The notes under the pieces: generated by a model | Seen by the model: only the letters and a program-made list of their open reading frames with translations | Told to the model about the DNA's origin: nothing | Databases searched by the model: none | In this document: piece by piece, positions 53,029-57,735 of the stretch | Layout: every line of letters begins with the position of its first letter | How positions within the stretch are numbered: position 1 is the stretch's first letter | Translations under genes and position numbers: made by a program | Assembly: GCF_048403405.1 (NCBI RefSeq) | Contig: NZ_CP183129.1 | From: Escherichia coli | Lineage (GTDB): Bacteria > Pseudomonadota > Gammaproteobacteria > Enterobacterales > Enterobacteriaceae | Length of the DNA: 64,000 bases | Direction: 5' to 3' (one strand)

Positions 53029-53733
53029 ATGCGCCTGGTTCAGCTTTCTCGCCATTCAATAGCCTTCCCTTCCCCGGAAGGCGCATTACGTGAGCCTAAC
53101 GGCCTGCTGGCACTTGGGGGCGATCTTAGCCCTGCACGCCTGTTAATGGCTTACCAGCGTGGTATTTTTCCGTGGTTTTCTCCCGGCGACCCCATCCTCT
53201 GGTGGTCGCCCGATCCCCGCGCGGTGCTTTGGCCTGAATCACTGCATATCAGCCGTAGTATGAAGCGATTTCATAAACGCTCGCCCTATCGTGTCACGAT
53301 GAATTACGCTTTTGGTCAGGTCATTGAAGGCTGTGCCAGCGATCGCGAAGAAGGAACCTGGATCACGCGTGGCGTGGTCGAAGCCTACCATCGCCTTCAC
53401 GAACTCGGTCATGCCCACTCCATTGAAGTCTGGCGTGAAGATGAGCTTGTCGGCGGTATGTACGGCGTGGCCCAGGGAACGCTATTTTGTGGTGAGTCCA
53501 TGTTCAGCCGGATGGAAAATGCGTCTAAAACGGCGCTTCTGGTATTCTGTGAGGAATTTATTGGTCATGGCGGTAAGCTTATCGACTGCCAGGTACTTAA
53601 CGATCACACAGCGTCGCTTGGTGCCTGCGAAATTCCCCGCCGGGATTACCTCAATTATCTCAATCAAATGCGCCTCGGACGATTGCCGAATAATTTCTGG
53701 GTACCACGGTGCTTGTTTTCACCACAAGAATGA
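53029..53733 (+). CDS. aat: Leucyl/phenylalanyl-tRNA-protein transferase
   Basis: 234 aa. Confidence 0.9.
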
Positions 53734-54014
53734 ATGTTTTCGGCACATTTCTCCCCAGAGTGTTATAATTGCGGTCGCAGAGTTGGTTACGCTCATTACC
53801 CCGCTGCCGATAAGGAATTTTTCGCGTCAGGTAACGCCCATCGTTTATCTCACCGCTCCCTTATACGTTGCGCTTTTGGTGCGGCTTAGCCGTGTGTTTT
53901 CGGAGTAATGTGCCGAACCTGTTTGTTGCGATTTAGCGCGCAAATCTTTACTTATTTACAGAACTTCGGCATTATCTTGCCGGTTCAAATTACGGTAGTG
54001 ATACCCCAGAGGAT

Positions 54015-54236
<222 letters not shown>

Positions 54237-54489
54237 TTGTTTTACCGCCTGATGGGCGAAGAGAAAGAACGAGTAAAAGGTCGGTTTAGCCGGCCTTTTT
54301 ATTTTGTGATATGTATGAAGTACTTTGGAAGTATAAATCCATAACTTGTCTCGATGTAGATATACTGCACAACTTGTTTACAGTATGAGCAAACAATAAT
54401 TATCATTAAAATTCTTCTTGACCGTTTTACTCCAACTCCCTATAGTAGCGCCCCGTTGCCACCCATGAGGTTTGGCAGCAAAACAATTT

Positions 54490-54577
54490 GGTGAGGTGTC
54501 CGAGTGGCTGAAGGAGCACGCCTGGAAAGTGTGTATACGGCAACGTATCGGGGGTTCGAATCCCCCCCTCACCGCCA
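54490..54577 (+). tRNA. serW: tRNA-Ser (anticodon GGA), long variable arm
   Basis: GGTGAGGTGTCCGAGTGGCTGAAGGAGCACGCCTGGAAAGTGTGTATACGGCAACGTATCGGGGGTTCGAATCCCCCCCTCACCGCCA; T-loop GGTTCGAATCC; position between infA and clpA. Confidence 0.85.
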
Positions 54578-55115
54578 TATTTAAAGAAAAGCTCGTACGA
54601 AAGTGCGAGCTTTTTTTTTCGCATATTGCACTCCAGGGGGGATGAGAAGCCCCGACCGGGGTTCGACAACTGGCGCAGCCAGTTGGACAGACCACGAACA
54701 CAGTGAGTGGGCTGCCCGCAGGGCGAGCGAAGCGAGTCAATCCCCCCCTCACCGCCATATTCAAAGAAGAGCTCGTACGAAAGTGCGAGCTTTTTTTTCG
54801 CATATTGCACTCCAGGGGGGATGAGAAGCCCCGACCGGGGTTCGACAACTGGCGCAGCCAGTTGGACAGACCACGAACACAGTGAGTGGGCTGCCCGCAG
54901 GGCGAGCGAAGCGAGTCTATCCCCCCCTCACCGCCATATTTAAAGAAAAGCTCGTACGAAAGTGCGAGCTTTTTTTTCGCATATTGCACTCCAGGGGGGA
55001 TGAGAAGCCCCGACCGGGGTTCGACAACTGGCGCAGCCAGTTGGACAGACCACGAACGCAGTGAGTGGGCTGCCCGCAGGGCGAGCGAAGCGAGTCTATC
55101 CCCCCCTCACCGCCA
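54578..55115 (+). repeat. Three tandem direct repeats of ~179 bp (54578-54757, 54758-54936, 54937-55115) plus a degenerating fourth start; each unit has the terminator hairpin and ends with a copy of the tRNA-Ser 3-prime end (AATCCCCCCCTCACCGCCA)
   Basis: Near-identical units read directly from the sequence; occasional single-base differences between copies. Confidence 0.85.
54590..54620 (+). terminator. Terminator hairpin immediately after serW (first of four near-identical copies)
   Basis: AGCTCGTAC-GAAA-GTGCGAGCT followed by a T-run of 8-9. Confidence 0.7.
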
Positions 55116-55458
55116 TATTCAAAGAAGAGCTCGTACGAAAGTACGAGTTTTTTTTCGCATTTTATCTGCCTGTACGGCAGTAAACGGTATAAAAATCGGG
55201 TTTTTCTTTCGGCTGGCTTTCTAAGCTGCCTGTACGGCAGTGAACTCAAATACTACACGTCTAGCCCGTTGTTAATAAAGCAAAACCATCTCATTTTCCT
55301 GCTACCACCCTTTTTTATCCTTACCTTCCCGCAGCACTAATTATCAACAACTTACCATCATCATCAAAAAAAGGGTCTGAACCTCCTCCACCCCATAAAC
55401 AAAAAGTCCGTAACCTCTTTCGAGATTACGGACTTCACCAACCTACCTAACAATTAGA

Positions 55459-57735
55459 TTAATGCGCTGCTTCCGCCTTGTGCTTTTGTGCACTCTGGAA
55501 TCCATAAGTCAGCTCATTTTTCTCTTTATCCAGCGCAACCGTCACCTGACCGCCGTCCACCAGCGAACCAAACAACAGTTCGTTGGCGAGCGGTTTTTTC
55601 AGGTTGTCCTGGATGACACGCGCCATCGGACGTGCGCCCATTGCCCGGTCGTAACCTTTCTCGGCCAGCCAGTTACGCGCTTCCTGGCTCACTTCCAGAG
55701 AAACACCTTTCTGATCCAACTGAACCTGCAACTCGACGATGAATTTATCCACTACCTGATGGATCACGTCGGTTGACAGATGATCGAACCAGATAATGTT
55801 GTCGAGACGGTTACGAAACTCCGGCGTAAAGATCTTCTTGATCTCTTCCATCGCATCGGTGCTGTTGTCCTGGTGGATAAGACCAATCGATTTACGCTCA
55901 GTTTCTCGTACCCCAGCGTTGGTGGTCATCACCAATACCACGTTACGGAAGTCCGCTTTGCGTCCGTTGTTATCGGTCAGCGTACCGTTGTCCATCACCT
56001 GCAACAGAATATTGAACACGTCCGGGTGCGCTTTCTCGATTTCGTCCAGCAGCAGCACCGCATGTGGATGCTTGATGACCGCATCAGTCAGCAAACCGCC
56101 CTGATCAAAACCAACGTATCCCGGAGGCGCACCAATCAGACGGCTGACGGTATGGCGTTCCATATACTCGGACATATCAAAGCGCAGAAGCTCAATGCCC
56201 AAAGCTTTCGAAAGCTGTACCGTCACCTCTGTTTTCCCGACCCCGGTAGGGCCGGCAAACAGGAACGAACCGACCGGTTTATGTTCGTGACCTAAACCTG
56301 CACGCGCCATCTTAATGGCTTCAGTCAGCGCCTCGATGGCTTTATCCTGACCGAAGACCAGCATTTTCAGGCGATCGCCGAGGTTTTTCAGGGTATCGCG
56401 GTCACTCTGAGAAACACTCTTCTCTGGAATGCGCGCAATACGGGCCACCACGGACTCAATATCCGCCACATTAACGGTTTTCTTGCGTTTGCTTACCGGC
56501 ATCAGGCGTGCGCGAGCGCCCGCTTCGTCGATAACGTCAATGGCTTTATCCGGCAGATGACGATCGTTAATGTATTTCACCGCCAGCTCTACCGCTGCAC
56601 GCACCGCTTTTGCGGTATAACGCACGTCGTGGTGCGCTTCATACTTCGGTTTCAGGCCATTGATGATTTGAACAGTTTCTTCGATCGACGGTTCAGTAAT
56701 ATCAATTTTCTGGAAGCGACGCGCCAGAGCACGGTCTTTCTCGAAAATGTTGCTGAACTCCTGATAGGTTGTCGAACCAATTACGCGAATTTTACCGCTG
56801 GAGAGCAACGGTTTGATTAGGTTAGCCGCATCGACCTGACCACCAGACGCTGCACCCGCACCGATAATGGTGTGGATCTCATCAATAAACAGGATGCTGT
56901 TAGTGTCCTGCTCCAGCTGCTTGAGCAACGCTTTAAAACGTTTTTCAAAGTCGCCGCGATATTTTGTGCCCGCTAACAGAGAACCGATATCGAGAGAGTA
57001 AATCGTACAGTCAGCCATCACTTCCGGCACATCGCCCTGAACAATTCGCCAGGCAAGACCTTCTGCAATCGCGGTTTTACCGACACCAGATTCCCCCACC
57101 AGCAGCGGGTTGTTTTTACGGCGACGGCAGAGAACCTGAATAGCACGCTCCAGCTCCTTCTCACGACCAATCAGTGGGTCGATTCCGCCCACGCGCGCAA
57201 GCTGATTCAGGTTCGTCGTGAAATTCTCCATACGTTCCTCCCCACCAGCTTGTTCTTCGCTGTTTGGCTGGCTGCCAGGATCAGAAGACTGTGTCGGCTC
57301 GTCTTTACGCGTGCCATGAGAGATAAAGTTCACCACATCGAGACGGCTGACTTCATGTTTACGCAACAGATATGCCGCCTGCGACTCCTGTTCGCTAAAG
57401 ATAGCGACCAGAACGTTTGCACCGGTAACCTCATTGCGACCGGAGGACTGGACATGGAAGACCGCACGTTGCAGTACACGCTGAAAACTCAGCGTTGGCT
57501 GTGTGTCGCGCTCCTCTTCACTGGCAGGCAGAACGGGTGTGGTTTGTTCAATAAAGGCTTCCAGTTCCTGACGGAGCGCAACCAAATCCACAGAACACGC
57601 TTCCAGCGCCTCCCGGGCAGATGGGTTACTGAGCAGCGCCAGTAACAAGTGCTCGACGGTCATAAACTCATGACGGTGCTCGCGCGCTCTGGCGAAAGCC
57701 ATATTTAAACTGAGTTCCAGTTCTTGATTGAGCAT
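55459..57735 (-). CDS. clpA: ATP-dependent Clp protease ATPase subunit ClpA
   Basis: Start at [14 protein letters not shown] (758 aa); two AAA+ modules. Confidence 0.95.

Follow-up and report, generated by a model that had tools for sequence, protein, structure and literature searches.

The 3' trailer of serW, the tRNA-Ser(GGA) gene of Escherichia coli, carries a tandem array that, judged from its sequence and predicted fold, is a set of RtT modules, a serine-tRNA version of the tyrT repeat (RF00391; gene rttR) and a paralogue of the array found at serX in K-12. We demonstrate the family membership, structure and copy-number dynamics of this array, starting from a single window (the whole stretch of DNA analysed, 64,000 nucleotides). 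The explanation that we consider probable overall is that three RtT modules lie in the serW 3' trailer, that units are gained and lost by unequal recombination and that RNA is cut from read-through transcripts. The kind of element is already known, since it is in Rfam and other RefSeq genomes carry an RtT annotation at the same serW locus. Two points may be new: the module matches its host tRNA systematically across four tRNA species, and it has relatives outside Enterobacterales, most of them too divergent for Rfam to detect.

Anatomy and identity of the serW array

The interval is the E. coli infA-serW-clpA interval, and its features are collected in Table 1. Tandem Repeats Finder describes the array at 54559-55160 with a period of 179, 3.4 copies, 97% matches and a score of 1132, so that the three units of 179-180 bp and partial fourth unit claimed in the first-pass annotation are present there, far beyond chance. 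Each unit starts with the hairpin AGCTCGTAC-GAAA-GTGCGAGCT, which forms a 16-bp stem in the RNA fold and is followed by 8-9 T; this intrinsic-terminator hairpin leads into a multi-hairpin body of about 115 nt, and at its end the unit copies the tRNA sequence, starting in the T-loop (AAT) and running through CCA. Terminator hairpin and tRNA 3'-end copy are seen in all three units, again as first described. The further statement that the same 19-mer ends every unit is true of the tRNA and unit 1, where all 19 positions match with the CCA included, while units 2 and 3 match at 18/19 positions, a T replacing the first A of the 19-mer. The supposed degeneration of a fourth unit dissolves on comparison with K-12: the terminal part-unit shows no decay and corresponds to the single serW terminator that K-12 has right after its tRNA, here abutting a CRISPR remnant.

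Table 1. Positions of the serW array, its parts and its neighbours in the window
Feature	Position	Strand	Detail
aat	53029-53733	+	core gene upstream of array
infA	54018-54236	+	core gene upstream of serW
serW promoter, sigma-70-like	54418-54446	+	TTGACC, 17-nt spacer, TATAGT; promoter scan
serW, tRNA-Ser(GGA)	54490-54577	+	ARAGORN; Rfam tRNA 53.8 bits
serW last 19 nt	54559-54577	+	template of the unit-end copies; sequence reading
Unit 1, 180 bp	54578-54757	+	terminator and T-run 54590-54619; RtT body 54621-54757; end AATCCCCCCCTCACCGCCA 54739-54757
Unit 2, 179 bp	54758-54936	+	terminator 54770-54798; RtT body 54800-54936; end TATCCCCCCCTCACCGCCA
Unit 3, 179 bp	54937-55115	+	terminator 54949-54977; RtT body 54979-55115; end TATCCCCCCCTCACCGCCA
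Terminal part-unit, 45 bp	55116-55160	+	55116-55157 ahead of the CRISPR remnant; extra terminator hairpin and T-run 55128-55155; terminator-like site 55122-55155 by scan
Two-repeat type I-F CRISPR remnant	55158-55245	-	CRISPR-DR4 50.1 and 26.4 bits
clpA	ends at 55459	-	convergent with array; clpS on same flank

The consensus terminator scan picked up the fourth hairpin only, and terminators were assigned instead by folding and by a cross-species count of hairpins followed by T-runs. The serW promoter is the sole promoter-like site upstream of the array, and the promoter scan found none inside 54578-55160. Type I-F repeats of 28 bp with a 32-nt spacer occur only in the CRISPR remnant of Table 1, and the 179-bp units are not of this kind; the remnant in the clpA-infA interval corresponds to the cas-less CRISPR4.1-2 cassette (PMC3903273).

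An Rfam search of 53500-56500 returns full-length matches to RtT (model positions 1-130) for units 1, 2 and 3 at 45.1, 44.0 and 43.9 bits, with E-values from 7e-7 to 1.5e-6; against the gathering score of 45 bits unit 1 lies above and units 2 and 3 slightly below. The units also sit where RtT is expected, immediately behind a tRNA gene of like orientation and in tandem units of about 178-181 bp; the copy of the tRNA 3' end is present in the window and general across the family, and the fold is conserved with compensatory changes. Nearly identical units at serW in strains CFSAN061763 and EC21Z-151 carry a PGAP annotation, worded at their infA-serW-clpA locus as 'RtT sRNA, processed from tyrT transcript'. 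The label 'RtT sRNA' is also placed behind serX in a K-12 strain and four times around tyrT and tyrV. The RefSeq record of the window's own genome (GN02461) leaves the array without an RtT annotation, and some RefSeq records place a 132-aa 'hypothetical protein' there.

The array shares with the tyrT RtT its layout of tandem units of about 178-181 bp right behind the tRNA gene in some 3.x copies, the closure of each unit with the last 19 nt of its own tRNA (for tyrT the tRNA-Tyr 3' end, AATCCTTCCCCCACCACCA), the homologous core GGATGAGAAGC..CGAC...GGTTCGA ... CCCGNAGGGCGAG ... GAGTNAATCC and the closing helix. It differs in that the host of the serW units is tRNA-Ser(GGA), with a 3' copy and pairing segments of GGGGGG/CCCCCC against GGAAGG/CCTTCC for Tyr, in that the middle hairpins are other and longer, in that Ser units have an intrinsic terminator as their spacer, which Tyr units never have, and in that the serW units are without an ORF of Tpr length. 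The K-12 serX array is closer still: a tRNA identical in sequence to serW is followed by three units of about 181 bp, each ending AATCCCCCCCTCACCGCCA, and then a part-unit, giving the same unit architecture in about 3.3 copies, with units 92.9% identical to those of the window. The two differ in their slot (ghrA-serX-ycdU versus infA-serW-clpA) and in that each locus has its own terminator variant, GTACGGGC versus GTGCGAGC.

Egan and Landy reportedly described the tyrT repeat in 1978 as a unit of 178 bp repeated 3.14 times, and Bosl and Kersten are said to have described rtT RNA in 1991; to our knowledge, no mechanism has been put to RtT in the decades since. A recent paper that discusses RtT still gives its function as unknown (bioRxiv 10.1101/2024.07.17.603846). 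Our literature search returned nothing linking RtT or rttR with serX or serW, and for 'rttR' it gave mostly unrelated acronyms; RtT has dropped out of the CoCoNuT preprint in its present version, and it is likewise not mentioned in the TRIC-seq RNA interactome preprint.

Fold of the module and its match to the host tRNA

A single unit of the window (unit 1) folds with a minimum free energy of -76.9 kcal/mol (z = -5.05 versus shuffled sequence) into the terminator hairpin and then a body closed by helix P1, with the tail UCACCGCCA, the tRNA 3' end, left single-stranded. P1 pairs the G-run before the conserved RTGAGAA with the copied T-stem 3' strand and first acceptor bases and closes the module, and P2 is an inner hairpin that repeats the tRNA T-stem 5' strand and then UUCGA. 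In this fold the 19-mer supplies the 3' side of the closing helix, which makes it a structural element of the RNA and not a recombination scar.

In an alignment of 51 units, each less than 92% identical to the others, RNAalifold predicts P1 (seg1:seg4), P2 (GAA.CNN[CGACN]NNG.UUC) and a CCC/GGG hairpin (P5). P1 and P2 covary with the host T-arm, with 93.6% of cells paired and two-sided changes in 104 cells and 7 pairs; the covariation score is reached by 0/500 shuffles and slid controls score much lower, although the independent events behind the signal are few and lie mainly between the Ser and the Tyr clade (24 vs 24 sequences). The fit is just as good for an alternative that pairs seg1 to seg2 and seg3 to seg4, with 97.5% paired, and over the four shared base pairs the covariation does not separate the Rfam-like from this T-arm-like pairing. 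Pairs 9:135, 8:136 and 7:137, among which G-C is switched to A-U, prolong P1 into the acceptor strand, and this extension alone favours the first structure (1:4 with 2:3). The existence of two four-segment pairings (1:4 + 2:3, or 1:2 + 3:4) would allow a conformational switch. A covariation-supported tandem G-A motif in RtT has also been cited in R-scape/CaCoFold work (PMC7657543).

A scan of species-representative genomes with the conserved core GGRTGAGAANCNNCGACNNNGGTTCG gave at least 120 loci and at least 205 units. Among the units listed, at least 90 lie downstream of tRNA-Ser(GGA), at least 86 downstream of tRNA-Tyr, at least nine downstream of tRNA-Ser(GCT) in Pseudoalteromonas and at least one downstream of tRNA-Arg(TCT) in a Paenibacillaceae metagenome-assembled genome; at least one more stands behind an unassigned ARAGORN call ('tRNA-???', anticodon ccgg), and at least 18 are without a tRNA within 1.5 kb, often at contig ends. 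The arrangement downstream of a tRNA thus extends to other species, in 186 of the 205 units among these matches. Outside Enterobacterales only one relative (L091) scores with the Rfam RtT model, at 41.9 bits, and the others give no Rfam RtT match at E < 0.01; the Arg unit and most of the Pseudoalteromonas units are invisible to that model.

Whatever the class of tRNA, the unit contains four segments that vary in step with its host. The first, immediately ahead of RTGAGAA, is complementary to the T-stem 3' strand and to the beginning of the acceptor 3' strand; the second and third form a hairpin whose 3' strand, together with TTCGA, copies the T-stem 5' strand and T-loop; and the fourth is the tRNA from AAT to CCA. 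Read in this order, the segments are GGGGGG, CCCC, GGGG and CCCCCC for Ser(GGA) and GGAAGG, CTTC, AAGG and CCTTCC for Tyr, while the first, third and fourth segments for Arg are CCAGGAGGG, GGGGG and CCCTCCTGG. Variants of the tRNA are tracked by P1 and P2 as well, with GAGGGGGAT/ATCCCCCTC in Pantoea (locus L119), and a Silvania unit has GAGAGGGG where its tRNA ends in CCCCTCTC. Behind Tyr, Ser(GGA), Ser(GCT) and Arg(TCT) alike, the module holds the T-stem 5' strand with UUCGA, the T-stem 3' strand through to CCA, and two complements, in every case examined.

Because the segments of the module track the host tRNA, the match suggests that the job of the RNA depends on the identity of its own tRNA. 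RtT could be a mimic or decoy of the tRNA T-arm and 3' end, or could act in cis on the folding or processing of the precursor; alternatively, the resemblance to the tRNA may be merely a relic of descent. With more doubt than confidence, we also raise the idea that trailer RNAs coupled to their tRNA form a wider class, of which RtT is the part seen so far.

Variation in copy number and slot

Copy number in the serW-clpA interval varies among E. coli genomes, K-12 being without the array at serW, and the tandem amplification put forward in the first-pass annotation is borne out by loci that differ by whole units. The K-12 serW locus is that of the window minus exactly three units (763 bp versus 1301 bp), with the tRNA, one terminator and the same flank. 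K-12 has 0 units at serW and 3.3 at serX, and the window's genome has the reverse: its serX is a degenerate stump of about 55 nt leading directly to dgcT, and as only this stump remains, its array stands at serW where that of K-12 stands at serX. Loci with one and with two units at serW also exist, one of them carrying an IS1 insertion.

An RtT body joined to the serW-side flank is found in 1027 of 5426 complete E. coli genomes (~19%), counted at a coverage of at least 80% with a junction query made of the RtT body, terminator and clpA-side flank; most of the remaining genomes match this query only from the tRNA onward. With a single unit as query, 3362 of the 5426 complete genomes reach a coverage of at least 80%, so that about 38% are without a complete Ser-type unit anywhere, and any function of the module is therefore dispensable. 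Among the matches listed, Ser(GGA) arrays of other genera mostly adjoin ghrA, the serX slot (~27 loci), and only four loci, all from Citrobacter, adjoin infA or clpA. Thus serX is the slot widely conserved across genera, whereas serW is filled only in the E. coli fraction given above and, among these matches, a few Citrobacter. By nearest-neighbour comparison the serW units share 95.4% identity with those at serW in Citrobacter sp. R56 and 93.9% with serX units of E. coli and E. albertii, values that do not separate the possible origins of the array.

As the empty site and the copy-number variants suggest, the number of units would rise and fall through slippage or unequal homologous recombination between the repeats, which have a stretch of at least about 65 bp in common without a mismatch, made up of the 19-mer and the terminator. 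One E. coli genome (locus L039) has a short unit in which GGGGTTCGA of the body is fused straight to the tRNA 3' half, ATCCCCCCCTCACCGCCA, and therefore the tRNA-like segments themselves can recombine. Matches that break at 54982 in two other genomes (H27 and H31) were considered as candidates for an island inserted at an RtT pseudo-att site; for H27 this is ruled out, its locus being a 2-unit array with a different flank.

Expression, competing explanations and significance

The Ser-type spacers are intrinsic terminators, with covariation in their stems, in 56 of 64 distinct cases among the matches listed, as against 0 of 76 Tyr-type spacers. Since a terminator precedes each Ser-type body and no internal promoter was found by the scan, these bodies would be transcribed only by read-through. 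The notion that the units are small terminator-bounded transcription units accordingly stands for the terminators, which are present, and falls for the transcription units, no promoter-like site having been found within them. By analogy with the rtT RNA of tyrT, transcripts would start at the serW promoter, read through the terminators and be cut at the tRNA-like 3' ends by the nucleases of tRNA 3' maturation, to give discrete structured RNAs of about 140-180 nt, whose role may be dispensable, modulatory and tied to the cognate tRNA. Read-through past the terminators is the weakest link of this explanation. The 3'ETS-leuZ RNA, a tRNA 3' external transcribed spacer RNA, acts as an sRNA sponge. 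It too is a stable RNA from the trailer of a tRNA transcript and is the nearest known model for the action of a trailer RNA, although its sequence is unrelated and RtT, unlike it, is repeated and mimics its tRNA.

The strong terminator before every body, with no internal promoter found, suits a neutral or selfish repeat, a by-product of slippage or unequal crossing-over whose bodies at the Ser loci are never expressed as functional RNA. So do the range of copy number from 0 to at least 3, the proportion of E. coli genomes (~38%) lacking a complete unit, and the fact that a genome may lack the array at serX or the one at serW. Against this, the Ser-type hairpins have been kept across many genera by paired substitutions, ACTGGC/GCCAGT versus ACGGGC/GCCCGT and CCC-NNN-GGG versus CCCC-GAA-GGGG being two examples; P1 and P2 follow the variants of the tRNA, as in the Pantoea locus described above; and RNA-seq in Klebsiella detected RtT RNAs of a cluster of four neighbouring genes and found them regulated, the tRNA type of that cluster not being established as Ser (PMC4147364). 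The paired inner-hairpin substitutions among genera, the expression of RtT in Klebsiella and the motif of the R-scape/CaCoFold work are evidence that the bodies are under selection at the RNA level, and we consider a neutral or selfish origin improbable, though it keeps more weight than the other alternatives.

The first-pass annotation had raised the possibility that the array is the footprint of repeated integration and excision. On this reading each unit would be a scar of an element that targets the tRNA-Ser 3' end, and the 19-mers would be cores of attL and attR. The serW and serX genes are genuine integration sites: OI-43 and OI-48 of O157:H7 lie at serW and serX, flanked by the 14-bp direct repeat CCCCCTCACCGCCA, which is the last 14 bp of these tRNAs, and share this repeat and a P4-family integrase with SRL-PAI (PMC3064760). 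The 14-mer is contained in every copy of the 19-mer, the att repeats of these islands are likewise duplications of a tRNA 3' end, and in some O157:H7 genomes (H38) similarity to the window stops right after the tRNA. However, what is repeated at serW is the whole 179-bp unit, more than a core, with no integrase or other element DNA between the copies and with flanks made of core genes, aat and infA before the array, clpA and clpS after it. The DNA between the supposed cores is RtT, homologous to tyrT units that carry a copy of the tRNA-Tyr 3' end, and this interior is a structured RNA conserved across many enterobacterial genera with covariation. Nor would an excision scar give rise to the complementarity between the unit's 5' strand and the tRNA copy. 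An origin as integration scars is thus very unlikely and we reject it as an account of the array, while the 19-mer copies may serve as secondary integration targets.

The ATG of GGATGAGAAG is conserved, and the nine codons that begin with it, MRSPDRGST, resemble the K-12 Tpr sequence MRSFDQGST..., from which one might suppose that each unit encodes a Tpr-like (protamine-like) peptide. Yet 52 of 79 distinct Tyr units among the matches listed stop after 5 codons, the ORFs of Ser units run from 15 to more than 63 codons with no conservation of length, several units have GTG as start codon, a 1-nt indel separates the frames of serW and serX units and the 179-bp period changes the frame from one unit to the next. 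The F/P and Q/R differences themselves are the two halves of compensatory RNA pairs. Taken over homologous units, the ORF in the Tpr frame can be as short as 5 codons or exceed 67, with frameshifting indels, in agreement with the earlier remark that the overlapping ORFs of the array are spurious. We regard the units as RNA modules and not as protein genes, and a gene for a small protein in each unit as extremely unlikely. Tandem repeats of 179 bp are prone to misassembly from short reads, but collapse or expansion of the repeat, a concern raised at the outset, can practically be disregarded here, as the 1301-bp region is 100% identical, with its three units, in the complete genome NZ_CP095533.1 (strain GN02461), arrays of one, two and three units occur at this locus in many independent complete genomes, and the same junctions recur in about 1000 independent complete assemblies.

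For annotation, the region should carry the label of RtT repeats in place of the overlapping ORFs, which are to be discarded. As the 19-mer contains the att core of the OI-43, OI-48 and SRL islands, the arrays would multiply potential secondary targets beside a known integration hotspot. For work on RtT itself the Ser-tRNA arrays are a source of natural variation, with 0 to at least 3 copies, two alternative slots and many genomes without a complete unit, and the matching of the module to its host tRNA gives a concrete feature, P1 and P2, that can be mutated in tests of function.

The serW and serX slots

In strain GN02461 (NZ_CP095533.1), the window's own genome, the tRNA gene serX is followed at its locus (L129 36760-36951) by its terminator, after which the RtT sequence is reduced to a degenerate stump, roughly 55 nt long (ccggggggatgagaagccccaggcggaggtcgacaactagcgacagac), that is directly abutted by dgcT, while ycdU is absent from this serX locus. 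The Ser-type array of this genome, carried behind tRNA-Ser(GGA), is therefore found at serW and not at serX, the opposite of the arrangement in K-12. A type I-F CRISPR repeat pair begins immediately past the last terminator of the window's array and is the counterpart of the cas-less 'CRISPR4.1-2' cassette described at the clpA-infA locus (PMC3903273); some strains have a complete cas6f-csy3-csy2-csy1 operon at the infA-clpA interval (L128). The window's CRISPR spacer is not that of K-12, so that the interval represents a different haplotype.

CRISPR features following the RtT array, in window coordinates
Feature	Position	Strand	Rfam match or score
Type I-F CRISPR repeat pair, 32-nt spacer between	55158-55245	-	CRISPR-DR4
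CRISPR-DR4 repeat	55218-55245	-	50.1 bits
CRISPR-DR4 repeat, degenerate	55158-55185	-	26.4 bits

In another strain, the window-locus match H5 (NZ_CP137696.1) covers an annotated IS1 family transposase within the infA-clpA interval, and by span arithmetic its serW-clpA locus holds approximately one unit and one IS1. At serX of E. coli SCPM-O-B-8794 (L039 6639-6745) a short unit has GGGGTTCGA of the RtT body joined straight to ATCCCCCCCTCACCGCCA, and looks like a recombination product between the T-arm copy of the body and a tRNA 3' half. The serW-side and serX-side units of Citrobacter amalonaticus AUH_CA_2023_1 (L098/L099), in an alignment read by eye, hardly differ from one another and stand apart from the units of other species, a pattern that points to concerted evolution of the two slots by gene conversion in this strain.

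Open reading frames and record annotation

Overlapping ORFs reaching 203 aa arise from the array on either strand of the window interval 54378-55340, and in the RefSeq records of some genomes a 132-aa 'hypothetical protein', WP_012602745.1, spans the RtT array (e.g. E. coli DG342-2, L006 1625-2023). RtT is left unannotated in the RefSeq record of the window itself, probably because the array's scores lie at the gathering score.

Structure, subfamilies and reach of the RtT family

Across the 51 RtT units of alignment A1 (each <92% identical to the others), the CCC-NNN-GGG segment at columns 90-100 acts as a local triloop hairpin: the triloop is unconstrained (GCA, GAA, ACU, AUA, GUA) and CCCC-GAA-GGGG arises by paired insertions in the hairpin. 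The Rfam RF00391 consensus, in contrast, pairs CGAA of this segment to the invariant UUCG, and its structure may be due for revision here. Among the matches listed from the species-representative scan (L003-L126), 56 of the 64 distinct spacers that precede Ser(GGA)-type bodies are intrinsic terminators, with stem covariation; for the Tyr-type, behind tRNA-Tyr, none of 76 spacers is one. Judged from these spacer sequences, the two subfamilies must differ in their mode of transcription.

RtT-like units also lie 3' of tRNA-Ser(GCT) in Pseudoalteromonas spp. (L007, L028, L054, L064, L091, L095, L113) and of tRNA-Arg(TCT) in a Paenibacillaceae metagenome-assembled genome (L092 12658), the sole and still provisional Arg case, from a metagenome bin, and their pairing segments agree with their own upstream tRNA. 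Only L091 scores on the Rfam RtT model (41.9 bits), the other seven loci giving no match to it at E < 0.01. The RtT family may be wider than the reach of the Rfam model.
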